From assembly GCA_944389495.1 (NCBI GenBank), contig CALXMN010000002.1:85704-149703 (forward strand): 64,000 nt of DNA, in the 5' to 3' direction. Position 1 is the stretch's first letter; each line of letters starts with the position of its first letter. The DNA is from an uncultured Alphaproteobacteria bacterium. GTDB lineage: Bacteria; Pseudomonadota; Alphaproteobacteria; Rs-D84. Shown piece after piece: positions 1,202 to 61,069 of this stretch. Both the position numbers and the translations under genes were made by a program. A model generated the notes under the pieces. That model made no database searches, was not told the DNA's origin, and worked only from the letters and a program-made list of their open reading frames with translations.

Positions 1202-1879
1202 TTATTTTATCATAACTTTGCCATTCGACAAAGTTGTTATATCGGTTGGTTGTACCATATCGGTAAAATTTTTCTGATGACTGATAAACACGAACGTTGT
1301 ATCACGCATTTCGTGAATTGTATTAACAATTTGTTGTTGAACCGTGGCGTCGGCACCAGAATCAGGTTCATCCAAAATGGCGAATTTGGGCCGTGTCATA
1401 ACCAATCGTAACAGCATAAGGCGTTTGCGCTCGCCACCCGAAAAGCCAACATTAATTGATCGGTTAAGCCACTGTTTCGGTATATCCAGTTTTGTACGTA
1501 CGTTTTCCAGCGCGGTTAAAAATTCCCCCATAGATAAATCGTGACCTGTTTCAAAATGGTGATGTGCCGCCATAGAATGCTTAAGAAAACTAAGCACGGT
1601 TAAACCCGGTATTTCGGGCACATTTTGGGAACCGATAAAAATCCCCATTAATGCGCGTGCAGTGGCGTTTTCGTTTGTTATATCGCGATCTTCAAATATA
1701 ATTTTACCCGTATCAATGGTGTATTCGGGATTGCCCGCAATCACGGATACCAGTGTTGATTTCCCTGAACCATTATGACCCGACAATAAGTGTCGCGCAC
1801 CACGTGCAATGGTCATATTTATATCAGATAATAAACGTTTGCCGTTCAATGATACAGATAAATTCTTTATTTCCAACAT
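1202..1879 (-). CDS. sufC: Fe-S cluster assembly ATPase SufC
   Basis: ABC ATPase with Walker A GHNGSGKST, signature FSGGERKR and Walker B FAILDEPDSG. SufC-like N-terminus MLEIKNLSVS. Lies immediately downstream of sufB. Confidence 0.9.
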   Translation of the reverse strand: MLEIKNLSVSLNGKRLLSDINMTIARGARHLLSGHNGSGKSTLVSVIAGNPEYTIDTGKIIFEDRDITNENATARALMGIFIGSQNVPEIPGLTVLSFLKHSMAAHHHFETGHDLSMGEFLTALENVRTKLDIPKQWLNRSINVGFSGGERKRLMLLRLVMTRPKFAILDEPDSGADATVQQQIVNTIHEMRDTTFVFISHQKNFTDMVQPTDITTLSNGKVMIK

Positions 1880-4903: not shown

Positions 4904-6532
4904 ATGACCAACCCGATAAAATATTTGTTTATGTGTGGCATAATTGGCGCAATGGTTGCGGGATGTGCCACCAAGGAATCGGCCAAGGTTGCGGCATCTG
5001 TGGACCAGGATTTTATCAATGCGTATGACGCGTTTGAAATGTCCAAGAATCCGCCGGCCAAGGTTGCCAGCGGGGATACGGTGTCTATGTCCGAAGGTGT
5101 GTGGTTGGGATCTTCGTCAACGTTGTTGGCGCATCGTAATAATTTGCCATCACAATTTGAAACGGGTACGGGAATTACAATTTTGTTGGATGAACCGGTA
5201 ACGTTGCAGGCATTGTCAAATAACATAACCTCTGTTACGGGAATACCGGTCAAAATTGATAATCAAATTAATTCAGAAAAATTAAAAAAGACAATTAATG
5301 TTGCTTATACCGGCAGTTTGTCGGGGCTGTTATCGCAAATCGCAACAGATTTGGATTTACTGTGGTATTATGACAAAACATCAATTGTGTTTTATGAAAC
5401 AGAAACCAAGACGTTTACTTTATATGCGTTGGGGACGGATGTGTCGTATCAAACCGCCGTTGAAACCGATGATGGTAATGCCGTGTCTTTGGAATCTACG
5501 CTGAAAGAGTGGGATGAAATTGAAAATGCGCTGGATACCATAATTGGTGATACGGATAATGCATCGTTTACCGTATCGCGCAGTTTGGGCACAATAACCG
5601 TTACTGCGCCACCATCAACGTTGGCACGTGTCGGGGATTATATCGAACGTCAAAATAAACGTTTGTCGCAGTTGGTGACAATTGATGTCAAGGTTCTGCA
5701 GGTATCTATTTCCAACGATTCGGCCTTTGGGTTGAATTTGGCGGCGGCAATTAATTCGGCATCTGGATTGAATATTGTTGCAAATCCGAAAAATAATCTG
5801 ACCAGTACCGAGGCAAGTTCTATGAATATTGCCGTATTATCTAATACTGTGTCTGCGGCAACAGGGGCAACCCATCTGGAGGGTAACGATACCGTTGCCG
5901 GTGCATATACCCAGGATCAGATTCAGAATGGTTCTTTGGCCGGGTTGGCCGGAACGGATGCTCTTATCCAGGCGTTGGCCAAACAGGGCAAGGTTTCGTT
6001 GGTTACAAACGTTGGGGTTACAACGCGTAATAATCGTGTTGCGCCCGTAAATAATACGCGCACAACCGGATATATTAAGCGGTTTGAATCACGTAACTTT
6101 ACAACCGTAGAATCCAGCACCGTTGACCAGGATGATTTGGAAACAGGATTTTCGATGCAGTTATTGCCGAATGTTTTGGAAAATGGTAAGATTTTGCTGC
6201 TGTTCAGAATGTCGGTGCGTGAATTGTTGCGTATGCAGCAACAAACCATTGGCGAGGTTACTTTGCAATTGCCCGAGGTTGAAGAGCGCAGCTTTATGCA
6301 AGAGGTTATTATGGAATCCGGACAAATGTTGGTCGTTTCTGGATTTGAAAAACAGGAAAATAATGATACGCGATATGGACTTGGGGATCCTGATTTTATG
6401 GCCCTGTCGGGGTCGCGTGAAACGTCGGCCACACGTGATGTGTTGGTTGTTATCCTGACGCCCCAGGTGTTGGTCAGTCCGATGGATGCGGAACGAACAA
6501 TACAACAGCATTGGGGGGCACCACTGAATTAA
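4904..6532 (+). CDS. outer-membrane secretin lipoprotein, R64 PilN-like (type IVb pilus/T2SS-type secretin)
   Basis: GGAG RBS. Lipobox MVAG|C at Cys21. Secretin-domain blocks VTIDVKVLQVSISNDSAFGLN, GKVSLVTNVGVTTRNNRVAPV, GFSMQLLPNVLENGKILL, MLVVSGFEKQEN and RDVLVVILTPQV. The 542-aa length and lipoprotein nature match PilN-type secretins. Confidence 0.7.
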   Translation: MTNPIKYLFMCGIIGAMVAGCATKESAKVAASVDQDFINAYDAFEMSKNPPAKVASGDTVSMSEGVWLGSSSTLLAHRNNLPSQFETGTGITILLDEPVTLQALSNNITSVTGIPVKIDNQINSEKLKKTINVAYTGSLSGLLSQIATDLDLLWYYDKTSIVFYETETKTFTLYALGTDVSYQTAVETDDGNAVSLESTLKEWDEIENALDTIIGDTDNASFTVSRSLGTITVTAPPSTLARVGDYIERQNKRLSQLVTIDVKVLQVSISNDSAFGLNLAAAINSASGLNIVANPKNNLTSTEASSMNIAVLSNTVSAATGATHLEGNDTVAGAYTQDQIQNGSLAGLAGTDALIQALAKQGKVSLVTNVGVTTRNNRVAPVNNTRTTGYIKRFESRNFTTVESSTVDQDDLETGFSMQLLPNVLENGKILLLFRMSVRELLRMQQQTIGEVTLQLPEVEERSFMQEVIMESGQMLVVSGFEKQENNDTRYGLGDPDFMALSGSRETSATRDVLVVILTPQVLVSPMDAERTIQQHWGAPLN

Positions 6533-10250: not shown

Positions 10251-11279
10251 ATGAATATGGAAGATTTATTTTATAAATTATTGGTTCTGCGTATGCCTGG
10301 TATCGGGGCGGCAAAGTATAATAATCTGGTCCAGAAGTTTGGGGATGTGCGTGCCGTGGCGACAATGTTGGGTGTGGACGATGCGATTCGTGACGCGGTG
10401 CGACGTGAAATGGATCGGGCCGTGGAACTGGGGATACATTATATATGTGATGATATGCCGGAATATCCGGCGGCATTACGGGCGATTAAAAATCATCCGC
10501 CGGTGTTGTCTGTGCGTGGAAATGTTGAAACGTTGGGGCGGGGGACGGTCGGTATTGTTGGAACGCGTCACGCAACCGTGGCGGGAATGAATTTGGTGTC
10601 GCAAATTGCCGCCGCATTTGCGTCAAATGGAATTGCGGTGGTGTCGGGAATGGCAATGGGAACAGATACGGCTGCGCATCGTGGTGCACTGGGGGTTGGT
10701 GGTAATTGCCAGACCATCGCCGTTGTTGCCGGTGGTGTTGATTATATTTGGCCGGTGGAAAACGAATCGTTGTATTGGGAAATTGTTGCACGTGGTGCGG
10801 TGGTCAGTGAAATGCCCGTTGGGTTTGTGCCAATTGCAACAAACTTTGTCGTACGTAACAGATGGATTGCAGGAATTGGGGAAAAATTAATCCTGGGCGA
10901 GGCGGATCTGAATTCAGGCAGTATGAAAACCGCGCGATTCGCAATCGAATCGGGACGTGAAATTTGGGCGATTCCATCACATCCGTCGGATTCCCGGGCC
11001 GCAGGGCCCAATTTGCTGATAAAAACAGGGGCGGCAAAATTATGCAGTGGCCCATCTGATTTTTTTGATGCACAAAAAAATATGGTCGATGAAATAAAAA
11101 ATGAAAAAAAATCTGATTCGGAAAATTTGATTTTAGATGCCTTGGGAACAATTCCTGTGTCTGAAACTGTATTGTCAGAAATTGTCAAAAAAACAATTTC
11201 GGAAATAAAAGCGGATTTGGTTGTGCTGGAATTGCAGGGTTTGGTGCGAAAAGTTGATGGCGGATATGTGCGTGCGTAA
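10251..11279 (+). CDS. dprA: DNA-processing protein DprA (Smf)
   Basis: DprA core VGTRHATVAGMNLVSQIAAAFASNGIAVVSGMAMGTDTAAHRGAL. Also GSMKTARFAIESGREIWAIPSHP and a C-terminal winged-helix-like VLELQGLVRKVDGGYV. Confidence 0.85.
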   Translation: MNMEDLFYKLLVLRMPGIGAAKYNNLVQKFGDVRAVATMLGVDDAIRDAVRREMDRAVELGIHYICDDMPEYPAALRAIKNHPPVLSVRGNVETLGRGTVGIVGTRHATVAGMNLVSQIAAAFASNGIAVVSGMAMGTDTAAHRGALGVGGNCQTIAVVAGGVDYIWPVENESLYWEIVARGAVVSEMPVGFVPIATNFVVRNRWIAGIGEKLILGEADLNSGSMKTARFAIESGREIWAIPSHPSDSRAAGPNLLIKTGAAKLCSGPSDFFDAQKNMVDEIKNEKKSDSENLILDALGTIPVSETVLSEIVKKTISEIKADLVVLELQGLVRKVDGGYVRA

Positions 11280-11636
11280 AAAAAATCTTGTCTATACATT
11301 GTATATACAAGGCGCAGAAATCGGGCAAAAAAACGAATCGTTGTCAAAAAATAAATGTTCGAATTTTGGTTAACAATCGGTTGCAAACAGACAAATATCT
11401 TTTAACTTATTTGACGTATCCAAAAACGATTGAGAGCAATCCCAATCACCAGAAAAAATCGGCGGATAAATAAAAAATTTGTCCCACCGATAAAAGCGAG
11501 AGAGTAAAACGTAGGCAAATATATAAATACCTTTTTTCGCGTCGTGTGACAGAAAATTGGCGTTTATGTGCGGGTGATTTTTATACTCTTGCGGCGGCAA
11601 TGGGAAACTCTTTTAGGGAAGGAAAGGAGAAACGGA

Positions 11637-22138: not shown

Positions 22139-24241
22139 ATGGTTAAGAAAAAAAGAAAGGGTAGTTTTTTTAAAATTATGCGCGTGCTGGTTCTGTTTAT
22201 AATGGGACTGGTGGTGGCGGTTGTGATCGCGTTAAGCCAGATAAATCTTGAGGCGTTACGCGGCAGTGTTTTAACCGTATTGCGGGATGCAACGGGTTTG
22301 CCTGTGGAAATTGATGGGGCGGTGTCTTGGAAGTTATCTTTGCGGCCACAAATTGAATTGAACCAGGTGCGGGTACCAAATGCAGAATGGGCGCGGCACG
22401 AAAATGCATTCAGCGCAGAAAAAATAGACGTTACATTGGATTTAATTTCTTTGTTTCAAGACAGGCCAACAATACAAAATGTCAAAGTTTATGATGCCAC
22501 CATTTGTATAGAGCAAAATGAAAAGGGCGAATTTTCAATATTGCCAAAATTTACATCGGCACAACCGGATACAGATGCCGGAACAGAGGCACCCGTTTTA
22601 ACGGGGCCGGCCGATTATCCATTTGTTGACCCGGGGCTGGGCGGGTTAGAGGTACAGAATCTTGATATAGATATTTTGGGGGCCGAGTATTCGATTAACG
22701 GCTTTCAAATTCGATATATGCCGCGCAGCGATACGCGCGAATACAGCGGATGGGTAAGATCAACCAGTGATGTCTTTCCTTTTATATTGTCTTTTTCAAA
22801 ATACAATGCCGAACGCAAGGTTTATCCATTGCGCGTTGCGTTTGCAACCGGTGGTGATGCATTGATTGCAAATATCGCATTAGAGGGTACAAGCAAGGCA
22901 CCAATTGATTTTATAATTCGTGGCGATATTCCAGATATTGCAGAAGTTGGAAAGGTTTTTAATCTTGATTTGGAAACAATGCCCGCAATGAAAGTTGATA
23001 TTTCTGGTGGATATGATTGGCAGAAACTGACACTGCGGAATTCTGTGATAACCGTACGTGGAACAACGTTGGGGTTCAGTGGGGTTATTGATTGGTCGGG
23101 GGCGGTGCCAAATGTTACGGCGACATTGGAATCTGATTATGTTAGTTTATATGAATTGTTCCCGGATATGTATGGGAAAAAGTGGGTACGGCCGAATCGT
23201 GATTTAAATGTTTTTCACGATATACCGTTATATGGAACCGAATTTTTAAAGATAAATGCAGATTTGCGGATTTTGTTTGATAAATTTGTTATCTATCGTG
23301 ATTTTAATTTATCTGATATGGATGTGCGGTTGAATTTGTACAACGGTCGGGGACGGATTGATGTGGCAACCGTAATCGCAAATGGAAATGTTCGTGCCGC
23401 GGCGGATGTTGATATTGATGCAGATGGGCGGATGTATGCACGGGTCGGGGGATTGGGACGTGGAATTACAATCGGGCAATTGTTACAACAGGTTTATATA
23501 GATGATTTTATTTCTGAATTGCCGGTGGATTTCGAAATGTATGTGGAGGCCAGTGGCAGCACATTGTCCGAATGGATGCAGACAATCACGGGGCCTGTGC
23601 GGGTGTATTCGTCGGGATCGGGGTATGCGCATTCGGCACTGGTTGCGAATATGTATGGAACAGATTTTTTAACCACCTTGCGACACAGTATAACCGATTT
23701 GTTCAGTTCTGAAAAAAAGTATAATCAAATGACAATTTCGTGTGTTTCGGTAAATACAAAACTTCGCGAAGGTTTAATTGAAACCCAGCACGGGGTCGCG
23801 GTTGAAACAAATGCAATAAATGTGCGCTTGGCCGGTAACTTGGATTTGGGGGATGAAAAAATGCAATTGTCTTTGACGACGGTGCCGGTGCGCGGATTAA
23901 AGTTATCTTTGACGGGAAATGTTGTGAATTCTATGGAAATAACAGGAAATTTGGCAGAGCCAACAATAAGAATCAGTGGGGCCGCCGTAGCGGGCAAGGT
24001 TGCGTCTGCAACGGGAATTGGTTTATTGCTGGCACCGTTTACAGGTGGAATAGGATTGGTCGCCGGGGCGGGGGTTGGACTGTTGGCGGGCGATTTGTTG
24101 GAAAACTGGTTGGCGGATGACAATCCGTGCGAAACCGCATTGGAACGTGGGGCACCATCGCGTCGCGGTGATGCGGAATGGATGGATTTGTCGGCAGCGG
24201 ATTTGGCAAATAATATTATAAATAAAGGGGAAAATTTATAA
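22139..24241 (+). CDS. AsmA-family outer-membrane biogenesis/lipid-transport protein
   Basis: N-terminal anchor FFKIMRVLVLFIMGLVVAVVIAL followed by an AsmA-like N-domain (LPVEIDGAVSWKLSLRPQIELNQVRVPN). 700 aa with a beta-rich body. Confidence 0.7.
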   Translation: MVKKKRKGSFFKIMRVLVLFIMGLVVAVVIALSQINLEALRGSVLTVLRDATGLPVEIDGAVSWKLSLRPQIELNQVRVPNAEWARHENAFSAEKIDVTLDLISLFQDRPTIQNVKVYDATICIEQNEKGEFSILPKFTSAQPDTDAGTEAPVLTGPADYPFVDPGLGGLEVQNLDIDILGAEYSINGFQIRYMPRSDTREYSGWVRSTSDVFPFILSFSKYNAERKVYPLRVAFATGGDALIANIALEGTSKAPIDFIIRGDIPDIAEVGKVFNLDLETMPAMKVDISGGYDWQKLTLRNSVITVRGTTLGFSGVIDWSGAVPNVTATLESDYVSLYELFPDMYGKKWVRPNRDLNVFHDIPLYGTEFLKINADLRILFDKFVIYRDFNLSDMDVRLNLYNGRGRIDVATVIANGNVRAAADVDIDADGRMYARVGGLGRGITIGQLLQQVYIDDFISELPVDFEMYVEASGSTLSEWMQTITGPVRVYSSGSGYAHSALVANMYGTDFLTTLRHSITDLFSSEKKYNQMTISCVSVNTKLREGLIETQHGVAVETNAINVRLAGNLDLGDEKMQLSLTTVPVRGLKLSLTGNVVNSMEITGNLAEPTIRISGAAVAGKVASATGIGLLLAPFTGGIGLVAGAGVGLLAGDLLENWLADDNPCETALERGAPSRRGDAEWMDLSAADLANNIINKGENL

Positions 24242-24999
24242 TGACATATTGGGTTGATTTAATTCAAATTCTGGTAATCGCGATTGTTTTATTTTTGTTT
24301 TACCGCGCATTTATAAAAAATACATCGTCTGAAAGACTGGTGCGGGGCTTGTTGGGGTTGGCACTGTTGTGGGTATTAAGTTTTGTTTTGCCCCAGTTAC
24401 ATTTGGAATTGTTGGGTACATTTTTGCACTGGACGGCGTTGTTTTTATCCATCAGTTTGGTTGTTGTGTTTCAACCGGAATTGCGCAAGTTTATGGCATT
24501 GATGGGAAATATTGATGAGTGGCGCCGAATCTTTCGTGTGCCCGCCGACGCAAGACGTGATACAAAGTCATTGGATGCAATTGTGTCTGCGGTTGAATAT
24601 ATGTCGGCAAAACATACGGGGGCTTTGATTGTTTTTACGGGGTCGTTGGACGAAAGCGCAATTGATAAACCCGGCGTTGTTGTTGATGCTGTTATTTCAA
24701 GCGAGTTGTTGTTAACCATATTCTTTAATAAAACACCGCTGCACGATGGGGCGGTTATCATAGAAAAAAATCGTATCGCATATGCGGGGGGGATATTGCC
24801 ACTGTCAAAAAATAATTTAAATTGGAAATATGGAACACGACATCGGGCCGCATTGGGGTTAAGTGAAGTGTCCGGTGCAACTGTTTTGGTTGTGTCAGAA
24901 GAAAGTGGCGATATTTCAATCGCAGAAAAGGGCAAGTTTACAAAATATGATGATATGAAAAAACTGCGGGCCAAGTTGGAACGTGTTATGATAAAATAA
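24241..24999 (+). CDS. cdaA: membrane diadenylate cyclase CdaA (c-di-AMP synthase)
   Basis: Three N-terminal TM helices plus a DisA_N core: HTGALIVF, TPLHDGAVIIEKNRI, GTRHRAALGLSEVSGATVLVVSEESG. The start overlaps the asmA-family stop (TAATG). Confidence 0.85.
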   Translation: MTYWVDLIQILVIAIVLFLFYRAFIKNTSSERLVRGLLGLALLWVLSFVLPQLHLELLGTFLHWTALFLSISLVVVFQPELRKFMALMGNIDEWRRIFRVPADARRDTKSLDAIVSAVEYMSAKHTGALIVFTGSLDESAIDKPGVVVDAVISSELLLTIFFNKTPLHDGAVIIEKNRIAYAGGILPLSKNNLNWKYGTRHRAALGLSEVSGATVLVVSEESGDISIAEKGKFTKYDDMKKLRAKLERVMIK

Positions 25000-27966: not shown

Positions 27967-28203
27967 TTGCATAGTATTTGTGTGTGCGGTAATATATTTT
28001 TTGCCGGCGGGTGTTCCGCGGGCGGGGTGTGGAAACCCTTCTTTTGCGTCGCATTTTGGCGATGATAAGTTAATCCCTGATTTTTGGTCAGGGGGGTCGT
28101 GAATATATTGAATAAGCGACACAATTCAAAAGATTGTTTCCAACCTCCTGGCCACCAAATTTTGGTGGTTTTTGTTTAACAAAAACAAAACAGGGGTTTG
28201 AAA
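27967..28203 (+). promoter_or_regulatory. promoter plus ~200-nt conserved structured leader with intrinsic terminator (leader copy 1 of 3)
   Basis: TTGCAT (27967-27972), 17-bp spacer, TAATAT (27990-27995). The leader aligns in the sense orientation with 35991-36202(-) and 60839-61035(-). Terminator CCACCAAATTTTGGTGG followed by TTTTT at 28152-28173. The ATG is at 28204. Confidence 0.7.
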
Positions 28204-28785
28204 ATGAAAAAAATATTTGTGCCGGCATTATTGCTGGGCTTGGTGTTGCCTGTTACAGTGAATGCGAATACTGCGTCAGAACCGTGGAAGCCATACGGTG
28301 ATGCATATGATATGGTTGTTTGTACACATTGCTTGTCGGCGGCAATTGCGATGCAACAACTTATTACCGCGTATGAACATTCTTCTACGTGTGAACAGAT
28401 AGAAAATTATCCGGATTATATAGCAATGAAGGAAAGATTTAAACAGAATGCTATGACTGATGCATATGCGTATGATGTACCAGAGGCCGGGGTGTTTTTG
28501 GATACTTATTTGGATCAATTAGGTCAAGCGATTTGTCGCGAAAAAAAGGATGCAACAATATGTTTTGAACATTCTTTGTGTGCTTGTACGGCGGGCTATT
28601 ATGCTTACATAGTTAAGAGTGCAACCGGATTAATAGATCGCGCAGACTGTACCCCGTGTCCACAGGGTGGAATATCAAAAGAAAATTCTTACAGCATTAC
28701 GGATTGCTATTTGCCGTCTGGCACAATGGGCAGTGATGATTTAGGCGATTTTATGTACACAAAAGATTGTTATTATCAGGAATAG
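28204..28785 (+). CDS. secreted cysteine-rich protein, CYY-tail family
   Basis: Signal peptide MKKIFVPALLLGLVLPVTVNA|N. C-terminal module CTAGYY...DCTPCPQGGIS...SITDCYLPSGTMGSDDLGDFMYTKDCYYQE, shared with 35427..35990. Confidence 0.65.
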   Translation: MKKIFVPALLLGLVLPVTVNANTASEPWKPYGDAYDMVVCTHCLSAAIAMQQLITAYEHSSTCEQIENYPDYIAMKERFKQNAMTDAYAYDVPEAGVFLDTYLDQLGQAICREKKDATICFEHSLCACTAGYYAYIVKSATGLIDRADCTPCPQGGISKENSYSITDCYLPSGTMGSDDLGDFMYTKDCYYQE

Positions 28786-29844: not shown

Positions 29845-29933
29845 TTTATCCCCCATTTTTATGCAAATTATATCATAATCATTTTAATGGCGCCCCAATA
29901 ATTTGTGGGAATCTTTGACTGTGTTATTAGGAC

Positions 29934-30198
29934 TTGACAATTTTGTAAATTCGTCATATATTTATAAATGAGCGAACAAAACGATGCAAAATCAATCAGA
30001 TGGTGTGAAAATGTTTTGTGATAAGCATCTTGGCCGTTTATATTTTGGGGGTAACCCTGATTGGCCGCCGTGCGCCGTTGGGGGCGTCGGGGGATTGCGG
30101 GGGATTGCGGGGGATGAAATTTCGCAATATGTATTAATCGCCGATGATGGTTTTGTGTTAAATGTGGGTTAAAAGTCCGGGGTTTTCCGGGCTTTTTT
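29934..30198 (+). promoter_or_regulatory. consensus-like promoter plus ~230-nt untranslated segment ending in a terminator hairpin (candidate sRNA or cis-leader)
   Basis: TTGACA (29934-29939), 17-bp spacer, TATATT (29957-29962). G-rich tandem CGGGGGATTG x2.5 at 30088-30116. Hairpin GTCCGG-GGTTTT-CCGGGC followed by TTTTTT at 30175-30198. The next ATG is at 30255. Confidence 0.45.
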
Positions 30199-30254
30199 GT
30201 ATTTATTGGGATTTTTTTCCGTAAATACGTAATGCCAAACCAAAGGGGGCAAAA

Positions 30255-30722
30255 ATGCAAATGAAAAAAATAGTACCGTATAAAATAAAAAGATTAATCC
30301 CGATGTTGGGATTGGTCGGGGCGTCGTTGGTTATGCCCGGGTGTGATAAGGAAGATCCCATCCCAATGCGCGATATAGAACTGCGTTTTTCTGATGACGA
30401 TTGTTCCAATCTGTTTTATAGGGATAGAGAAGGTAGATTTTTTATCAGCGAAATAATAAAAACGTGTGAAAAAGATCCGTATATTAAAACAGTGTACTTG
30501 ATTCCTGAGGGCGATTGGCATATTTATGTTGCAAGTTCTATTAATGGATTTCGTAAATATAATCTTGAAATATTGTTTGACTATTCGTCAAAATTACGGG
30601 GTCGGGGTGATTTTAACTTTTATCCCGGGGCCGCATCCCAGGTGCCAGAGGATAGTTTGTGGTATGTAAGCAAGGGATTTACAATAAACAAGTATCGTCC
30701 ATTAACAGACTATCAGCGTTAA
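30255..30722 (+). CDS. lipoprotein, unknown function
   Basis: Lipobox LVMPG|C in MQMKKIVPYKIKRLIPMLGLVGASLVMPGCDKED. 155 aa. Confidence 0.55.
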   Translation: MQMKKIVPYKIKRLIPMLGLVGASLVMPGCDKEDPIPMRDIELRFSDDDCSNLFYRDREGRFFISEIIKTCEKDPYIKTVYLIPEGDWHIYVASSINGFRKYNLEILFDYSSKLRGRGDFNFYPGAASQVPEDSLWYVSKGFTINKYRPLTDYQR

Positions 30723-30749
30723 AAAAACCGGCGTTATGCCGGTTTTTTG
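30722..30749 (+). terminator. intrinsic terminator
   Basis: AAAAAAACCGGC-GTTAT-GCCGGTTTTTT. Confidence 0.75.
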
Positions 30750-30817
30750 TGTTGTGTCGGATGGTTGATTGTGCAAAAATCAAATTGTAAGTATTTTTTG
30801 TGCAAGTGGGACGGAAT

Positions 30818-32119
30818 ATGAAAAAGATTATATTTATTGCGTTTGGTTTATTTGCATTTGATGTGTCAAATGTGTTCGCATATACAGAAGTTTGTTCTGT
30901 TTTGGAAAATGGTGAATGTTCGCCGGGGTGCGAATTTGATGAAACCAAGGGTATGTGTAAATTGTGCACGCCCGGAACGTACAGCAATGAAGATGGTGTG
31001 TGCGTAAGTTGTAAAGATGTCGTTGGTTTTCCGCTTTATCTTGACAATTGGGAATATGTGGGTGATGGTGCAGAAAATGTTGACGAATGTAAAGTAAAGA
31101 TATTTTGTGATGCGGGTGAATATCTTGATACGATTGATATGACAACGGTGCAAGGAACAAAAATTGCTTTTAACTGTGCTAAATGTGGGGCGTATTATGA
31201 TTCAGGGGAAAGTGCCGACGGGTTCGAATTTTTTTTAAAGTTTGATATGACGTTGGTTGATGAAAATAACGAGGTTATTCCGGATATTACTGATTATTCG
31301 GTTACGAGATGTGGTGATGGACGCGTTGCAAAATTGATATTGGACAGAAATACCTGGGTGGGGTTCTGGGATGATAAAGAAGCGTATGCAAAATATAATG
31401 TTGGTTTTGCAATGGACGAAAATCCCACAGGTGGGTGGTCGAATGGCGTGTTGCCGGATAAGGCGGTGCAGGGTGACAGACCGATAAAAACATTCAAAGG
31501 ATATTGGACCGGTGAAAATTGTGATGGAACAATGTTTTTTGATGCCGATGGGAAGTTTAATGGAAATTGGTCGGGGTTGTTTGATTCAATGAATTCGAAT
31601 GGCGAGATAACTTTGTTTTCTTGCTGGGAAAATTATACCATTGCCGTCGGATATAAAAATCCCACTGGTTCTGGGAGTGTAACTTGGTATACGCAAAATA
31701 TTACCATAGATGATAACAGCGAGGGACAAAGTTTCCCAATTATGGAATATGGTGGCGAACCAGGTGGCGAGGGAATGGTTTTTCAACATTATACCTGTAC
31801 ATATACCGAGCGTGTCGGGGAACAAGACATTGTGCGTCCCTGCAGCAGTACACAAACTGTATGGAGGCCGGGTGAAGAAATTCCATTGGTTGGAACCAAT
31901 ATAACCTTTACACCTGTGTTTGGGGCGTGTGCGGTCGGCTATTATTGTGTTGGTGGTGAACAAATACCTTGTCCCATGGGAACAACCAGTAATATCGGCG
32001 CGGGGGCGGAATCACAGTGCTTTATGACACGTGGAACGGATGGAACCCAGTTTTGTGATGGCAAGGGTCGGTGTTTCACACTGCCGGGGACCGGAAATAT
32101 AAATTATGAGCCGGATTAA
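30818..32119 (+). CDS. large secreted cysteine-rich protein with CxxC-x-G-x-Y type repeats
   Basis: ATG 30818. Signal peptide MKKIIFIAFGLFAFDVSNVFA|Y. CKLCTPGTYSNEDGVCVSCKD and CAVGYYCVGGEQIPCPMGTTSNIGAGAESQC resemble eukaryote-type GCC2/GCC3 or VSP-like Cys repeats. Confidence 0.6.
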   Translation: MKKIIFIAFGLFAFDVSNVFAYTEVCSVLENGECSPGCEFDETKGMCKLCTPGTYSNEDGVCVSCKDVVGFPLYLDNWEYVGDGAENVDECKVKIFCDAGEYLDTIDMTTVQGTKIAFNCAKCGAYYDSGESADGFEFFLKFDMTLVDENNEVIPDITDYSVTRCGDGRVAKLILDRNTWVGFWDDKEAYAKYNVGFAMDENPTGGWSNGVLPDKAVQGDRPIKTFKGYWTGENCDGTMFFDADGKFNGNWSGLFDSMNSNGEITLFSCWENYTIAVGYKNPTGSGSVTWYTQNITIDDNSEGQSFPIMEYGGEPGGEGMVFQHYTCTYTERVGEQDIVRPCSSTQTVWRPGEEIPLVGTNITFTPVFGACAVGYYCVGGEQIPCPMGTTSNIGAGAESQCFMTRGTDGTQFCDGKGRCFTLPGTGNINYEPD

Positions 32120-32244
32120 AACAGATCAATTTTATATGTATGATTTTATATAAAACTTGACAACTGTAAATTTTGTGCAACAATTAAAATACGAATCGGG
32201 GAGCGGGTCAGAGGATAACAGAATAAAAGTCAAAGGATTGACAA

Positions 32245-32631
32245 ATGAAGAAAGTTCTGGTTTCTGTAATCGCGCTGACATCGCTGGCCGGTTGTGGCGC
32301 ATATTATGATTATTACAAGGGCGGGGTAAGATATACCCAAGATGGTCCGGATTGTATTTACTATGCCGGTGAACACGGACGTAATTATTCGCACTATGTC
32401 GGTGGGTTGGATACAGGTAAAAAGATTGTTTATCGTAATACCCGCTGTGAAGATTTGTATGCGATTGATAACTTTGGTCAAGAACCACGTCACGATCGTC
32501 AAATCTTGGCGCCGGCCGCCCAGGTTACGCCCTGTGATTCTTGTGCCCGGGTGGAAAAGGTTTCTTGTAATTCCTGTGCCCAGGCCCAGCCGGTTCTGAA
32601 ACGCAGATATATCATCGTTCCTGCTATGTAA
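32245..32631 (+). CDS. lipoprotein with Cys-rich C-terminus
   Basis: Lipobox SLAG|C in MKKVLVSVIALTSLAGCGAYYD. C-terminal CDSCARVEKVSCNSCAQ. Confidence 0.55.
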   Translation: MKKVLVSVIALTSLAGCGAYYDYYKGGVRYTQDGPDCIYYAGEHGRNYSHYVGGLDTGKKIVYRNTRCEDLYAIDNFGQEPRHDRQILAPAAQVTPCDSCARVEKVSCNSCAQAQPVLKRRYIIVPAM

Positions 32632-32747
32632 TTTGTGGAAAGATGTTGAATTGTCAACGGCGTCAAACAGACGCCGTTGTTTTTTATGTTTGCTTGAATG
32701 TATATAATTTTTATGATAAAATTAATGGAAAAGAAAGGGGATTTATT

Positions 32748-33122
32748 ATGAAAGGTTTGTTGAAATTATTTGGTTTTGCCGGAATTGCTGTTTTGGCGGG
32801 CGGGGCCGCCGCGGTCGCGGCACCGGCCGGGGGTATTGGTGTGAATGAAGCCGGGTTGTGCGCATTGATTGGGCAAATGTACGGTGTGTTCAAGATTTTA
32901 CGTACGTTGGCATTTGTGGGGGCCGCGTTTATTATTGCCGGTTGGGCCTGGGGTTATATATCCAAGGGCGAAGTAAAACTGGATGATTTGCAAAAGAAGG
33001 GTACCGGAATGTTGGTTGGGTTTGTGCTGTTGTTCGGTATCGGTGTTGTGTTACAGTTCTTTTTGTTTTCGAGTACGGGGTTGGGCATTATTGGTTGCTC
33101 GAACCTGATTACAAATTGGTAA
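32748..33122 (+). CDS. VirB2/TrbC-like (type IV secretion pilin-like) small membrane protein
   Basis: ATG 32748 follows AAAGGGG (the ORF opens at 32643). Long signal peptide ending AAVAAPAGG. A Cys precedes TM1 (GLCALIGQMYG...TLAFVGAAFIIAGWAWGYI), then a short loop, then TM2 (MLVGFVLLFGIGVVLQFFLF). Topology and length match VirB2-type pilins; the family assignment is tentative. Confidence 0.4.
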   Translation: MKGLLKLFGFAGIAVLAGGAAAVAAPAGGIGVNEAGLCALIGQMYGVFKILRTLAFVGAAFIIAGWAWGYISKGEVKLDDLQKKGTGMLVGFVLLFGIGVVLQFFLFSSTGLGIIGCSNLITNW

Positions 33123-35426: not shown

Positions 35427-35990
35427 TTAGTTTGAATAGTAACAATCCTTGGTATATGTAATGGTTCCGGTGGTGTCTGAGCCAATCGCGCCCGCCGGCA
35501 GATTGCACGATGTTATATTTGTTGCACCCGCGGTTGTTGTGCTGGAAATGCCGTCCGAAGATGGACATTTTGTACAGCCTGATGTGCCATTTGTACTGGT
35601 GCCGTAATATCCGGCCGCACATCTGTATTCTGTTTTTTTACTGCAAACGCACGTCGTTGTGTTGCACGTTGCGGTGGTGCGTTTTTCATATCCGGTTGAA
35701 TGCGCCGACCAGGATGTCGATTCACAATCTGTACAGCCATTGGAACAGTCTGGATATGGGGTGCAAATGCCTTGGTTACTGCTGAGCATTTGGCAATAAA
35801 AGCCGTCCATACATTGGTTGTTTCTAATGCACGGACTGCCATGGCCGCCGGCAGCGAAAAGGCAGGTGGCGCCGCCACAGTCGGCAGGATCCATACATAC
35901 AATACCTGGATTGTTGCTGCAATATCCGAGGGCAGCAAATGCATTGTGCACGGCAAATATTGCACCGATTATTATAATGGTTCGTTTCAT
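35427..35990 (-). CDS. secreted cysteine-rich protein, CYY-tail family
   Basis: Signal peptide MKRTIIIIGAIFAVHNAFA|A. About 24 Cys. C-terminal module CAAGYYGTSTNGTSGCTKCPSSDGIS...NITSCNLPAGAIGSDTTGTITYTKDCYYSN. Confidence 0.65.
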   Translation of the reverse strand: MKRTIIIIGAIFAVHNAFAALGYCSNNPGIVCMDPADCGGATCLFAAGGHGSPCIRNNQCMDGFYCQMLSSNQGICTPYPDCSNGCTDCESTSWSAHSTGYEKRTTATCNTTTCVCSKKTEYRCAAGYYGTSTNGTSGCTKCPSSDGISSTTTAGATNITSCNLPAGAIGSDTTGTITYTKDCYYSN

Positions 35991-36237
35991 TCAAGCACTC
36001 CTTAGGTTTTTGATTCGAAATCAAAAAACCGCCGAATTGTTTGGCGGTTGGAGGCTTGAAACTATCTTATAAAATAGCGGGCTTATTTTTATATTTCGCC
36101 ACCCTCCAACCTGATTATCAGCTGGAGTTTTTTGCATACTGTCGCGATGCACCGCGTTATAAGAGAGGTTTCAAGTCCTCGTTCGGGGAACACCCCCAAA
36201 CATTAATTAGTATAATATAAATAACAAACCGTGTAAA
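35991..36237 (-). promoter_or_regulatory. promoter plus conserved structured leader with terminator (leader copy 2 of 3)
   Basis: Read on the minus strand: TTTACA (36237-36232), 17-bp spacer, TATACT (36214-36209). Then the P1 hairpin GTTTGGGG-GTGTT-CCCCGAAC, switch strands CTCCAGC / GGTTGGAGG / GCCTCCAACC, terminator CCGCC-AAACAATT-C-GGCGG followed by TTTTTT, AAGGAG RBS and ATG 35990. Confidence 0.7.
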
Positions 36238-52878: not shown

Positions 52879-53877
52879 ATGGCGCACCAGTTCTTTTTTA
52901 ATCCGTTCATATTGGATAATTTGCCGGCACCCAGTGTCGGATTTGATGTTGTCCAAGATGTGTCCGAACCACGGCTTAGAATGTATGTGACAAGTCGGGG
53001 GGTCAAGACCTTTTTTGTGCGCAAGCGGGTTCACGGGCGCGATAAACGTATTATTATCGGTAACTATCCGGATATTGATATAGAAACCGCACGTGGTGCG
53101 GTGCCCGAAATATTGGCCGCCGCCCAAGAAAAACCGCGTACGCACAGAAAAAAAATAAGTTTGAAAAAATTCTTGGAAATTTATTTGGAAAAACGGGTGC
53201 GTCGTAACAGTGTGTCACGTGATAAATTGGAACGCGCAATTGCAAATCATTTGGGGCCGATTCTTGATAAAAATATTTCTGATATTACGGCCGATGATAT
53301 TGCGGAAACAATCGCGGAAATTAATGGCCCCGCCATTGCGGGACGTATGCAAGAATTTTTGCAAAGCGTTTTTAGATATGCAATTGATTCAGGATATGCC
53401 AAACAAAATCCAGTTGTGGGATTGGCCAAGATAAAACAAAATCGTCGTGTGCGACCGTTGAATAAAGCCGGTTTTCACAGACTTATGAACGCCATAGAGC
53501 GTGAAGATGATATAAATATGCGTGCCGCGTTTTTAATGTTGGTTTATGGATTCGCGCCAAAGTCCCAGGTGTTTTCTATGCAGTGGCGCGATTTGGATTT
53601 TAATCATTATACGTGGTGTGAACGGCCGCTGTCGGACAGGGCGGTTGTATTGTTACAGGATTTACCACAAAATGGGCGTTGGGTTTTCCCGGGACGTGGG
53701 CGCGGCCATCTTACCGATCCGCGTGTGGCGTGGCGGCGTGTGGCCAAAAATTCAGGAATACCAAATTTGACAATGGATGATGTTAATAAGTTCTTGATGC
53801 GGCAATTGGTTTGGACTTCGGATAAAGAAGTTTTTCGTGATAATATGAATGCATTGTTGAACGAGGTTTTGGCATAA
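52879..53877 (+). pseudogene. degenerate P4-type tyrosine integrase homologue (arm/DUF4102-like N-terminus kept, catalytic residues not recognisable)
   Basis: The N-terminus LRMYVTSRGVKTFFVRKRVHGRDKRIIIGNYPDIDIETARGAV matches the integrase arm domain. In the catalytic half, YGFAPKSQVFSMQWRDLDF replaces TGxRxxE, TMDDVNKFLMRQL replaces HxxR, and there is no terminal LxH...Y. At 332 aa it is shorter than the usual ~400 aa. The ORF is intact, so it could also be a repurposed non-catalytic protein. Confidence 0.55.

Positions 53878-55875: not shown

Positions 55876-55892
<17 letters not shown>
55679..55892. repeat. 43-bp perfect direct repeat (tRNA-Pro 3' end plus its terminator) bracketing a 128-bp GC-rich insert
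   Basis: CCACCCGTTGGGTGGTTTTTATTTTGTGGTCGGAGTGACTGGG occurs at 55679-55721 and 55850-55892. The insert at 55722-55849 is visibly GC-rich. It contains TCGCTGGTTCGAACCCA (55812-55828), a 17-nt copy of the tRNA variable-loop/T-arm region in inverted orientation. Confidence 0.9.
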
Positions 55893-55952
<60 letters not shown>

Positions 55953-59025: not shown

Positions 59026-59283
59026 AAATACGTAATTTATTAAATTGTTTAATGATTTTGTCTTTGAATAAATTTTTCTTTTGATATATAAAACGCCCGG
59101 AATTCCGGGCGTTTTGAGATTTGTGTTGCGAATAAAAACCGATTCGTATACCGCGCCAGCATATCATATTTTTAGATAAAATGCAAAAATCTTTTGTCTT
59201 GCAGGGTGGTTGAAACACGCGGTAAAATATTCCTGTACTAGGTATATAAATCTAGTTTTTTAACTGAACCATAAGGATATATT

Positions 59284-60083: not shown

Positions 60084-60111
60084 AAAAAAACGGGGCGCCG
60101 CCCCGTTTTTT
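60084..60111. terminator. bidirectional terminator
   Basis: AAAAAAACGGGG-CGCCG-CCCCGTTTTTT, between convergent genes. Confidence 0.75.
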
Positions 60112-60388
60112 ATTCCAATGGACAGATTGTGTTAAATTCATATGTGCCGCTGTTATCGGAATAGGGTGTGTTTGCTGGGGCGTACATTGTACACACTTTG
60201 TCCGGCGAATTGATAAGACAGGTGGTTGTTGTGCCAAGATTGGTTTGATGTATGGAACAACCGGTTGCGGATATTGTCATACCAGGATTGTTAACCATTG
60301 TGTACCCGTGTGGACAACTGGTTGTGGGTATAGAGGCGTGCGTATATGTGGGTGTGGCCAGTAAAAATAAAATGAATATTTTTTTCAT
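60110..60388 (-). CDS. small secreted cysteine-rich protein (92 aa), distal gene of a leader-controlled pair
   Basis: ATG 60388 follows GGGGGA. Signal peptide MKKIFILFLLATPTYTHA|S. The C-terminus YSDNSGTYEFNTICPLE resembles the GSDxxGxxxYTKDCYY tail. Confidence 0.55.
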   Translation of the reverse strand: MKKIFILFLLATPTYTHASIPTTSCPHGYTMVNNPGMTISATGCSIHQTNLGTTTTCLINSPDKVCTMYAPANTPYSDNSGTYEFNTICPLE

Positions 60389-60403
60389 ATTGTCCCCCAT
60401 AAA

Positions 60404-60838
60404 TTAATCAGAAAGATTGGAAAATAATCTTATACGAAAAAGTTCGGCACTTCTGTTTTCTAGTGTCTTTATGCAGTTTTGTGCGCAAAAATAGGGACAG
60501 TTCGAACCGCTTGAGACTGTTGTGATTGGACTAACCCATTGCGATATTGCGGGGCTTATCATTTTGCACCAACATATGGGTGTTGGGGCACTTGTGTTTA
60601 TTAAGGTAAGGTTTTCGGTGGTGGAACCCATTTCTGGGTTATCTGTGTGATGATCGCACATTGCGATGCCGCGAATTGGAATGCCACTGCAGGTTGCGGA
60701 CCAGGATTCGCCGGTGGAACTTACCGATGTGCAGGCATCACGTGATTGATTGTTTAATCCTATGCATTTGTATGCGGCGTTTGTCGTTTGAATTATGCCT
60801 GTACAAATTATGCCGGCAATGATTAAATGTTTTTTCAT
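60404..60838 (-). CDS. secreted cysteine-rich protein (144 aa)
   Basis: AAGGAGG RBS. Signal peptide MKKHLIIAGIICTGIIQTTNA|A. About 10 Cys in the mature part (ICWCKM, CPYFCAQNC). Confidence 0.6.
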   Translation of the reverse strand: MKKHLIIAGIICTGIIQTTNAAYKCIGLNNQSRDACTSVSSTGESWSATCSGIPIRGIAMCDHHTDNPEMGSTTENLTLINTSAPTPICWCKMISPAISQWVSPITTVSSGSNCPYFCAQNCIKTLENRSAELFRIRLFSNLSD

Positions 60839-61069
60839 TATAAACCTCCTTGGATTTTTCTTAAAAGAAAACCACCAAAATTTTAGGTGGCTGGAGGTTA
60901 GTAACTATCTAAACATAGTGTCGTTTATTCAAGTATATCACGACCCTCCAACCCAAATGTGGAGGCGATGTTTTTTGTCATCTCGGACAGTTTAGAGAGG
61001 TTACTACACCCCGTTGGCGGAATACCCGCCAACGCTTTTTATATTATCGTGTTGGTAGCAGTAAAGCAA
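60839..61069 (-). promoter_or_regulatory. promoter plus conserved structured leader with terminator (leader copy 3 of 3)
   Basis: Read on the minus strand: TTGCTT (61069-61064), 17-bp spacer, TAATAT (61046-61041). Then the P1 hairpin CGTTGGCGG-GTATT-CCGCCAACG, switch strands CCTCCAC / GGTTGGAGG / ACCTCCAGCC, terminator CCACC-TAAAATTTT-GGTGG followed by TTTT, and the RBS AAGGAGG. Confidence 0.7.

Follow-up and report, generated by a model that had tools for sequence, protein, structure and literature searches.

A 64,000-nt stretch of the chromosome of an uncultured Alphaproteobacteria bacterium (contig CALXMN010000002.1; hereafter, the window) carries three copies of a structured RNA leader that belong to a family distributed among related bacteria from animal guts. 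We observe a family of homologous leaders, two sets of base pairings, a constant geometry of promoter and terminator, and an association with particular genes. Leaders are about 165–230 nt long, each has its own sigma70-type promoter, and each can pair into two conserved and mutually exclusive folds. With moderate confidence, and from sequence comparison, we suggest that these are a new class of cis-acting 5′ leader that combines conditional termination of transcription with control of translation, that its regulon consists of genes for secreted cysteine-rich (Cys-rich) proteins, glycosyltransferases, and small helix-turn-helix (HTH) proteins, and that its input is macromolecular. The family would be new and its mechanism of a known kind, that of conditional-termination leaders with coupled masking of the Shine-Dalgarno (SD) sequence. 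A preliminary description of the window had interpreted the three regions as transcription attenuators that respond to a ligand or factor. That interpretation is supported with three corrections: the dominant fold is a four-way junction, the alternative fold includes two additional hairpins, and there are no conserved pocket nucleotides.

The three regions, 27967-28203 (+), 35991-36237 (-), and 60839-61069 (-), are homologous. Read in the sense orientation, they align over their whole length, and the mean column identity is 75%. Each of two conserved patterns has exactly three occurrences in the window, compared to 0.31 and 0.00 expected from shuffled sequences. With a covariance model (R1) derived from 28 distinct copies, scores are 183, 157, and 148 bits for the window copies and 12 bits or less for the antisense strand. 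The z-scores of their minimum free energy (MFE) folds relative to shuffled controls are strongly negative in all three copies (table 1). All seven elements listed in the preliminary description are present in each. A candidate fourth copy, a 14-bit match at 59073-59164 (-), is an ordinary terminator only.

Searches with the covariance model, a check proposed in the preliminary description, recover about 50 more copies, and covariation in the enlarged alignment is strong. The copies are spread over at least 18 species-level metagenome-assembled genomes labeled Alphaproteobacteria or Rickettsiales, and several often occur within 10–20 kb. A degenerate 22-nt pattern searched against GTDB species representatives identified about 22 true loci in 18 assemblies, whose source material is mouse, deer, and other guts. 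Assemblies are labeled as Alphaproteobacteria, Rickettsiales, Proteobacteria, or Pseudomonadota, except for one probable mis-binned contig. This contig (CAVGNU010000018.1; locus L044) is from a bin labeled Bacteroides fragilis and carries a typical leader (176 bits); it is probably an alphaproteobacterial contig contaminating the bin. A scan of Joint Genome Institute (JGI) metagenomes with the pattern yielded at least 11 true loci among the matches listed, several of which are duplicates of one another, so that a few loci were gained, and most matches are random coding sequence. In 37 related loci, R1 scores 53 matches at 86 bits or more, many of which the pattern had missed, with up to three to four copies per 12–20 kb. 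Syntenic contigs carry the same leader.

A divergent second subfamily scores only 29–38 bits with R1. Its members (table 1) have two P3 hairpins, and strands of the CCUCC/GGAGG type are replaced by strands of the CCCC/GGGG type. The same three-strand logic nevertheless applies, with strand B CCCUGACC, strand C GGUCGGGG, and strand D′ CCCCGAC, as defined below. The hairpin H_B1 is formed by UCAU and AUGA, strands A and D pair as GGGA with UCCC, and variants of the SD sequence match the D strands of their own leaders (AUUCCC/GGGAAU, CUUCC/GGAAG, and CUCCC/GGGAG).

Consistent with the preliminary claim that the leader fits no known class, Rfam 15 at gathering thresholds reports tRNAs only, both in the 64-kb window and in 146 kb representing 16 loci and about 30 leaders. 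In scans by E-value of copies 1 and 3, nothing exceeds half of any gathering score, and the matches to sRNA-Xcc1, PyrR, Yfr10, and snoR03 are at chance level. Literature searches found no paper linking riboswitches to these gut Alphaproteobacteria and no description of the leader, and its motif strings are absent from the 200 files searched among the 408 supplementary files of the catalogue of Fremin and Bhatt 2021 (PMC8040213).

The dominant fold, fold A, begins with hairpin P1, continues with a four-way junction that is closed by helices P2 and P2a and holds P3, P4, and P5, and ends with an intrinsic terminator. The preliminary description correctly proposed a structured leader with mutually exclusive helices and a terminator, but long-range helices replace its row of independent hairpins. 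P2 pairs GGGGYGUNGAAACC with GUUUCNARCCUCC, and the AU-rich P2a stacks upon it. P3 is variable, being absent from some copies and up to about 90 nt in others. P4 pairs CUCCWRN (strand B) with NYWGGAGG, a purine strand of the GGUUGGAGG type that we refer to as strand C. P5 has a large, AU-rich, and semi-conserved loop, sometimes with an inserted hairpin. The 5′ hairpin that had been described with compensatory stem changes is P1, in which seven of eight pairs show double changes. The AU-rich-loop hairpin is likewise real and is P5, and the conserved AGAUWGUUWC element supplies the 3′ side of two helices that had not been seen, P2a and P2. In single-sequence MFE folding of 28 distinct homologues, fold-A helices form in essentially all, with the outermost P2 pairs replaced in a few.

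Covariation was counted in a 45-sequence alignment to the model, with shuffled and slid controls; because relatedness among the sequences inflates such counts, weight is placed on the slid controls and on sequence versions that are independent of one another. Cells of fold A are paired in 93.3% of cases versus 73.5% in shuffles, and double changes occur in 400 cells versus 121 in shuffles (none of 500 reach the observed number) and 50–72 in slid controls. Every fold-A helix has compensatory pairs; alignment pair 48:305, for example, is CG in 18 sequences, UA in 13, AU in 8, and GC in 6. G-U pairs, which are possible on the sense strand only, are frequent (42:310 is GU in 29 sequences). Terminator helix 7 is conserved as well, and its pair 320:340 is GC in 19 sequences and AU in 18.

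These patterns largely refute the possibility that the regions are not functional RNA and reflect recent duplication of a cassette together with its upstream DNA, or a DNA-level repeat or recombination site. We consider it extremely improbable, even though most downstream genes belong to one expanding paralogous family and there is a weak resemblance to the integron-associated sRNA-Xcc1 (26 bits). Compensatory changes preserve helices while the sequence diverges, the model is strand-specific, and the leader precedes unrelated genes encoding GT92, GT2, HTH, and several families of secreted proteins. Moreover, blastn against phage and plasmid records returned no match and viral contigs have no match to the pattern, on which grounds an origin from a phage or mobile element was rejected. 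An attC or sRNA-Xcc1 cassette RNA was also rejected: attC sites carry RYYYAAC and GTTRRRY cores at the ends of an imperfect palindrome and sit at the 3′ ends of cassettes, but the GGCAGGAGG / CCUCCUGCC variants lack the AAC and GTT core sites, and the leader lies 5′ of genes and has its own promoter.

The alternative fold, fold B, centers on a hub strand. According to the preliminary description, the purine strand can pair with a CCUCC-type strand on either side of it; strand C is indeed complementary to both of these and covaries with both. The downstream strand, D′, overlaps the 3′ strand of P2 (strand D) and the base of the terminator. Helix C:D′ has nine pairs and is 98.3% paired across the alignment (205:315 is UA in 26 sequences and CG in 17; 206:313 is UA in 27, AU in 14, and GU in 4). 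When applied to an independent, plain MAFFT alignment, RNAalifold chose C:D′ over the P4 partner of strand C. The overlap with the terminator stem, described earlier as 2 nt, is 2–4 nt; C:D′ consumes four of the seven terminator pairs in the model, leaving three, as well as the whole 3′ strand of P4. Leaders of both the main and the divergent subfamily thus have what defines a conditional-termination leader: a conserved alternative helix that uses the 5′ strand of a terminator and excludes another conserved helix.

Two additional hairpins distinguish fold B. In a scan for mutual information, the top pair outside fold A is 284:299 (UA in 30 sequences and AU in 15; 100% Watson-Crick), which belongs to the 6-bp hairpin H_B1 that pairs RCWAUU with AGAUWGU and competes with the 3′ strand of P2a. 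In the second, alt-2, the GRGG of the P2 5′ strand (strand A) pairs locally with CCYC (42:55 is GC in 17 sequences, AU in 15, and GU in 12). These helices make up a nested fold B with P1, alt-2, and a three-way junction that is closed by C:D′ and encloses P5 and H_B1. Fold A leaves seven nucleotides with conservation of at least 97% unpaired (C54, G211, C283, A285, U286, U298, and C312), and fold B pairs every one of them. Two other arrangements were rejected. In a trp-like 1:2 / 3:4 model, strand A would pair with strand B, but strand A of the largest subfamily is GAGG and cannot pair with the CUCC of strand B. Likewise, H_B1 cannot be a pseudoknot that coexists with P2a because the topology leaves no nucleotides to cross the 6-bp P2a helix.

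Promoters and terminators place the leader in a consistent position relative to its gene. The hexamers and 17-bp spacers reported in the preliminary description are present in all three window copies, but a consensus scanner passes that of copy 2 only (10/12), the -35 boxes of copies 1 and 3 being too weak for it. In 35 of 45 homologues the best -10 box ends 6–8 nt upstream of P1, and terminators of upstream genes sit just before leader promoters; for both reasons, leader RNAs very probably start at P1. The intrinsic terminator has a GC-rich hairpin followed by a U-tract on the sense strand. In copies 2 and 3, stems are 7 bp, loops are 9 nt, which is beyond the limit of the scanner, and UUUUUU or UUUUC follows. 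A ribosome-binding site and ATG come after the U-tract, as described, although at a distance of 20–40 nt in 42 of 44 homologues instead of 25–35 nt. A gene in the same orientation always follows the leader, too closely for a promoter of its own to fit between them. In most homologues, the U-tract also pairs across a short loop with a downstream A-tract (5–8 bp) just upstream of the SD sequence, a hairpin which, in read-through transcripts, may bring the SD sequence beside the anti-SD hub strand.

The hub strand is also implicated in translation. CCUCC strands had been noted as anti-SD-like, and hub strand D is complementary to the SD sequence of each gene. In models of full-length mRNAs, the pairing probability of SD with D averages 0.44, reaches 0.7–1.0 in many copies, and is 0.96 in copy 1. 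Duplexes between cognate D and SD sequences are more stable than noncognate duplexes (none of 5000 permutations do as well). This bears on the possibility that the leader is an independent family of trans-acting small RNAs (sRNAs), in which the terminated transcript of ∼170 nt is the product, either an anti-SD or an Hfq-type regulator, and downstream expression is secondary. Riboswitch-terminated leaders can act in trans in other bacteria, and a promoter of its own, a strong terminator with a U-tail, CCUCC anti-SD-like strands, and AU-rich loops are all features that such an RNA could have. Nonetheless, we regard it as very improbable: the anti-SD strands are base-paired and not displayed in loops, hub strand D fits the SD of its own gene better than those of other genes, and the leader always lies 20–40 nt upstream of a co-oriented gene.

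Under the model that we favor, that of a cis-acting leader with macromolecular input, fold A (P1, the four-way junction, and the terminator) would be the default OFF state and end transcription. In transcripts that read through, CCUCC of hub strand D could additionally mask the SD sequence of the gene. In fold B, the ON state, the SD-like strand C would leave strand B and form 9–10 bp with D′ (CCUCCWRSC), which would dismantle the terminator and occupy the anti-SD sequence. Freed strands would then form the local hairpins alt-2 (GRGG...CCYC) and H_B1 (RCWAUU...AGAUWGU). A trans-acting input, either a protein or an RNA, is proposed to favor fold B by holding the 5′ strands A or B or by stabilizing the three-way junction, switching on the regulon of secreted Cys-rich, glycosyltransferase, and small HTH genes. 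Since the hub strand is shared by the base of the terminator, the closing helix, and the anti-SD sequence, one strand exchange would couple transcriptional and translational control.

Predicted energetics are informative about the default state. Fold A is favored by 12.8 ± 4.3 kcal/mol in the whole leader and by 6.9 ± 4.3 kcal/mol before the 3′ strand of the terminator is made. As the transcript grows, alt-2 is predicted to form early (probability of about 0.7) and to be replaced by P2. When strand A is made unavailable, the truncated transcript flips to C:D′ (0.59) and H_B1 (0.65); blocking strand B yields C:D′ with a probability of 0.72 and blocking both strands, 0.97. Together, the predicted energetics and the blocking results suggest that the default state is OFF and would give way to ON if an input acted on the 5′ strands or stabilized fold B by several kcal/mol.

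Several points weigh against this model. Nearest-neighbor models never favor fold B unaided, and its complementarities could have another meaning, for example as intermediates in folding. If C:D′ is imposed on the model, strand B, once free, is predicted to pair with the SD sequence (0.52); this would oppose the ON state unless strand B is otherwise occupied. H_B1 and alt-2 rest mainly on one covarying pair each, in counts that are inflated by relatedness of the sequences, and the antiterminator and terminator overlap by only 2–4 nt. Switching in vivo, termination by fold A, and the trans-acting input are inferred from sequence, and no candidate trans factor was identified.

The first of these points could also indicate a constitutive leader that does not switch and instead serves mRNA stability, insulation, or tuning of translation, with the fold-B pairings being folding intermediates or arising by chance from repeated SD-like and anti-SD-like strands. 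Thermodynamic models always favor fold A and alt-2 is a predicted transient early intermediate, as expected of such a leader. Yet a strong terminator before the sole promoter-proximal gene is senseless unless read-through is conditional, complementarity of 9–10 bp between C and D′ is kept through at least four different sequence versions, and all conserved nucleotides unpaired in fold A find partners in fold B. We consider a nonswitching leader to be very improbable.

The nature of the input separates the favored model from a riboswitch. In the latter, the four-way junction or the three-way junction of fold B would be an aptamer for a small molecule, ion, or second messenger, with the ligand selecting between terminator and antiterminator. 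The complex multistem fold with its variable-length P3 and semi-conserved large P5 loop, as well as a terminator-based expression platform with conserved alternative pairing, are consistent with this. So are the many copies per genome before genes for secreted and surface proteins, as in c-di-GMP-I riboswitches (c-di-GMP, cyclic di-GMP), and a gap between folds of about 7 kcal/mol, which is within the range of ligand binding energies. The organism also encodes a CdaA-type diadenylate cyclase. Its gene (24241-24999 (+); PF02457 and the CdaA N-terminal domain) adjoins dnaN and implies signaling by cyclic di-AMP (c-di-AMP) in this alphaproteobacterial lineage, making c-di-AMP one candidate ligand. 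The window has no ydaO-type c-di-AMP riboswitch, and in 360 kb of related DNA a motif search, itself a weak test, turned up the gene for CdaA but none for GGDEF, EAL, or HD-GYP proteins.

Against a riboswitch, no highly conserved unpaired nucleotides are left once fold B is counted, the regulated genes have no common metabolic theme, GGDEF and EAL genes are absent from that weak search, and no Rfam aptamer matches. Known aptamers normally keep a conserved junction core; this is typical of riboswitches and not a strict requirement. Because no conserved pocket nucleotides remain and the genes lack a common metabolic theme, we rank a riboswitch second and treat it as a tentative, rather unlikely alternative. 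Of the two options offered in the preliminary description, a ligand or a factor, a small molecule is therefore the less likely, and a protein or RNA input is more likely than a classic metabolite pocket. There is perhaps a one-in-several prospect, in our judgment, of an orphan riboswitch of a new class that senses a gut- or host-derived metabolite, ion, or nucleotide second messenger. If so, one strand exchange would switch a whole surface and secretome program, made up of Cys-rich secreted proteins and glycosyltransferases, at both transcription and translation.

The regulated genes resemble a program for the surface and secretome and not a metabolic pathway. As had been claimed, the three open reading frames (ORFs) downstream of the window copies each encode a signal-peptide-like N-terminus followed by a Cys-rich protein, and none has a Pfam family. 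Copy 3 probably controls a two-gene operon, since the stop codon of its first gene is followed, 3 nt later, by the start of another small ORF that encodes a signal peptide. Among 44 leaders, about 26 precede genes for secreted Cys-rich proteins with a shared C-terminal module, about five a second secreted family ('CWCKM...SNLSD'), five small XRE-like HTH proteins, three GT92 glycosyltransferases, two 'GTQYIDT' proteins, and one a GT2 glycosyltransferase; the remainder precede genes for other proteins, mostly secreted. The module is ∼45 amino acids (aa) long ('C.AGYYG...C..CP...IT.CY.P...D..G.Y...CYY(S/T)N') and is common to otherwise diverse secreted Cys-rich proteins, including those of copies 1 and 2 and those downstream of leaders at loci L002–L051. 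It matches no Pfam family and may be a sorting or anchoring domain. At locus L009, the leader at 5271-5470 (-) precedes a 46-aa ORF in which a signal peptide is fused directly to the module, an internal deletion relative to the 184-aa orthologue at L048. The 187-aa protein of copy 2 has 100 unnamed homologues in metagenome-assembled genomes from guts, and the few that are labeled by source are mostly from an Alphaproteobacteria bacterium or Rickettsiales bacterium. Its AlphaFold2 model is confident, with a predicted local distance difference test (pLDDT) score of 86, and has no fold match in the PDB at E < 1.

Almost nothing is known of the biology of these widespread, uncultured gut Alphaproteobacteria, which are found in mouse, deer, and other animal guts. 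The leader would be the main known control point for their secreted and surface proteins. It marks a regulon that ordinary annotation misses, since the proteins concerned mostly lack both a Pfam family and a fold match. As an RNA switch it is unusually clear, with covariation behind both conformers and a hub strand that is at once closing helix, anti-SD sequence, and terminator base. Once identified, the trigger would prove to be either a riboswitch ligand or an RNA-binding antitermination factor, and new in either case. For mutations in each of strands A, B, C, and D′, the predictions of the model are specific.

Table 1. Features of leaders and associated genes; loci other than the window are given by name, and z-scores are relative to shuffled controls
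Feature	Coordinates	Strand	Details	Basis
Copy 1 promoter	27967..27995	+	-35 TTGCAT 27967-27972; 17-bp spacer; -10 TAATAT 27990-27995, ending 7 nt before P1	
Copy 1 P1	28003..28023	+	GCCgGCGG / CCGCgGGC; loop GUGUU	MFE fold, model coordinates
Copy 1 four-way junction	28024..28147	+	P2, P2a, P4, P5 covary	MFE fold z = -4.25
Copy 1 strand A / P2 5′	28024-28039	+		
Copy 1 P2a 5′; 3′	28040-28046; 28128-28133	+		
Copy 1 P3; P4; P5	28047-28072; 28073-28095; 28096-28120	+		
Copy 1 strand B	28073-28080	+		
Copy 1 strand C	28087-28095	+	GUCAGGGGG	
Copy 1 J5/2a	28121-28127	+		
Copy 1 P2 3′ strand (D)	28136-28147	+		
Copy 1 hub strand D′	28144..28152	+	CCUCCUGGC, anti-SD-like; partners strand A (fold A), strand C (fold B), or gene SD	
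Copy 1 terminator	28149-28170	+	U-tract 28171-28175	MFE fold; terminator scan reports 28150-28170
Copy 1 post-terminator hairpin	28168-28186	+	GUUUUUG/CAAAAAC	Extended-leader MFE fold
Copy 1 SD	28191-28196	+	CAGGGG	Sequence
Copy 1 gene	28204..28785	+	193-aa Cys-rich protein; signal peptide; C-terminal CYY module	Translation; no Pfam match
Copy 2 upstream acyltransferase gene terminator	36269-36243	-		Terminator/promoter scan
Copy 2 promoter	36209..36237	-	TTTACA; 17-bp spacer; TATACT	
Copy 2 P1	36181..36201	-	GUUUGGGG / CCCCGAAC; loop GUGUU	MFE fold, model coordinates
Copy 2 four-way junction	36051..36180	-		MFE fold z = -6.42
Copy 2 strand A	36180-36165	-		
Copy 2 P2a 5′; 3′	36164-36158; 36071-36065	-		
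Copy 2 P3; P5	36157-36129; 36102-36079	-		
Copy 2 strand B	36128-36120	-		
Copy 2 strand C	36111-36103	-	GGUUGGAGG	
Copy 2 J5/2a	36078-36072	-		
Copy 2 strand D	36062-36051	-		
Copy 2 hub strand D′	36054-36046	-	CCUCCAACC; overlaps terminator hairpin	
Copy 2 terminator	36049-36027	-	U-tract 36026-36022	
Copy 2 U-tract:A-tract hairpin	36026-36008	-		Extended-leader MFE fold
Copy 2 SD	36003-35998	-	AAGGAG	Sequence
Copy 2 gene	35427..35990	-	187-aa secreted Cys-rich protein	Translation
Copy 3 promoter	61041..61069	-	TTGCTT 61069-61064; 17-bp spacer; TAATAT 61046-61041; -10 ends 7 nt before P1	
Copy 3 P1	61013..61033	-	GUUGGCGG / CCGCCAAC; loop GUAUU	MFE fold, model coordinates
Copy 3 four-way junction	60894..61012	-		MFE fold z = -5.01
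Copy 3 strand A	61012-60997	-		
Copy 3 P2a 5′; 3′	60996-60990; 60914-60908	-		
Copy 3 P3; P5	60989-60966; 60944-60920	-		
Copy 3 strand B	60965-60959	-		
Copy 3 strand C	60953-60945	-		
Copy 3 J5/2a	60919-60915	-		
Copy 3 strand D	60905-60894	-		
Copy 3 hub strand D′	60897-60889	-	CCUCCAGCC	
Copy 3 terminator	60892-60870	-	U-tract 60869-60865	
Copy 3 U-tract:A-tract hairpin	about 60870-60854	-		
Copy 3 SD	60850-60845	-	AGGAGG	
Copy 3 gene	60404-60838	-	144-aa secreted protein, 'CWCKM...SNLSD' family	Translation
Copy 3 second ORF	60110-60400	-	96 aa; signal peptide	
Divergent leader, L013	5939-6206	+		
Divergent leader, L050	5957-6205	-		
Divergent leader, L007	3299-3547	-		
Divergent leader, L029	5216-5462	-		
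Divergent leader, L023	about 1575-1750	+		

The window is otherwise an ordinary Gram-negative chromosome, with genes for EF-P, class II aldolase, TolB, pyrophosphatase, DnaN, ribosomal protein S7, YceG, and CdaA. Between the aldolase and TolB genes, five consecutive ORFs (29868-33122) have no Pfam match, and the syntenic contigs L002 and L005 do not carry the same genes here. An ORF at 52879-53877 (+) matches the N-terminal and central domains of phage-type integrases only, with no match to a catalytic domain. The sole tRNA gene of the window (55879-55952 (-)) is about 2 kb away, and the ORF may be a remnant of an integrated element. Locus L005 has, at 10984-11340 (-), a bAvd / 23S-rRNA-IVP four-helix-bundle gene beside a Cys-rich gene; a link to diversity-generating retroelements is not supported, as no reverse transcriptase was seen in this 20-kb locus.

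The leader shares parts of its architecture with several known systems. It resembles RF02221 (sRNA-Xcc1) in having a GG...CC-rich closing helix around two short hairpins and in ending with CCACC and U's. However, the match reaches 26.4 bits where the gathering score is 53 (E = 0.015 for a search of 361 nt), involves only the 76 nt at the 3′ end of copy 1, and has no counterpart in copy 3. A leader-peptide attenuator was rejected because candidate frames are not conserved, as judged by inspection and not by a systematic ORF scan. GUG starts are located 0–3 nt after the internal GGAGG, but they open frames of 27, 11, and 10 codons that differ among the three window copies, and some homologues lack a start.

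Like T-box leaders, these are multicopy 5′ leaders of 200–300 nt with a terminator as the thermodynamic default, an upstream structured domain that would do the sensing, and a less stable antiterminator that overlaps the 5′ strand of the terminator and would need a trans-acting macromolecule to stabilize it. Unlike T-boxes, they lack Stem I, the specifier loop, and the T-box sequence, and copies 1 and 3 have no match to the Rfam T-box even at E-values up to 10. Their antiterminator is a continuous helix of 9–10 bp with no conserved bulge such as the one that in T-boxes pairs with the NCCA end of the tRNA, its partner is an internal decoy-SD strand, and the targets are secreted, glycosyltransferase, and HTH genes instead of aminoacyl-tRNA or amino-acid genes. 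Mutually exclusive terminator, antiterminator, and anti-antiterminator helices with termination by default are shared with the BglG/LicT ribonucleic antiterminator (RAT), the dual hairpins of ANTAR targets, and the three-tier PyrR attenuator, as are tandem 5′ hairpins (here P1 and alt-2), the stabilization of which would, to judge from the blocking simulation, prevent the anti-antiterminator P2. But the leader is much larger than these, has a four-way junction, and has no partner protein identified. The P1 pentaloop is GURUU-like and the alt-2 loop is 8 nt (NNUNGAAA), contrary to the hexaloop A1/G4 rule of ANTAR targets, and the PyrR model scores 19.7 bits versus a cutoff of 54.

With the pbuE adenine ON switch and c-di-GMP-I (GEMM) riboswitches, the leader has in common a structured domain followed by an intrinsic terminator and a competing helix. 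GEMM riboswitches also occur in multiple copies per genome before genes for secreted and surface proteins, a distribution much like that of the leader. It differs from these riboswitches in lacking conserved unpaired pocket nucleotides and an Rfam match, and in having two conformers that are both elaborate and supported by covariation. Finally, as in SD-sequestering leaders, a CCUCC strand is complementary to the SD sequence of the gene and a purine-rich decoy strand competes for it; what sets this leader apart is that its hub strand is also the base of a terminator and part of the helix that closes a four-way junction.

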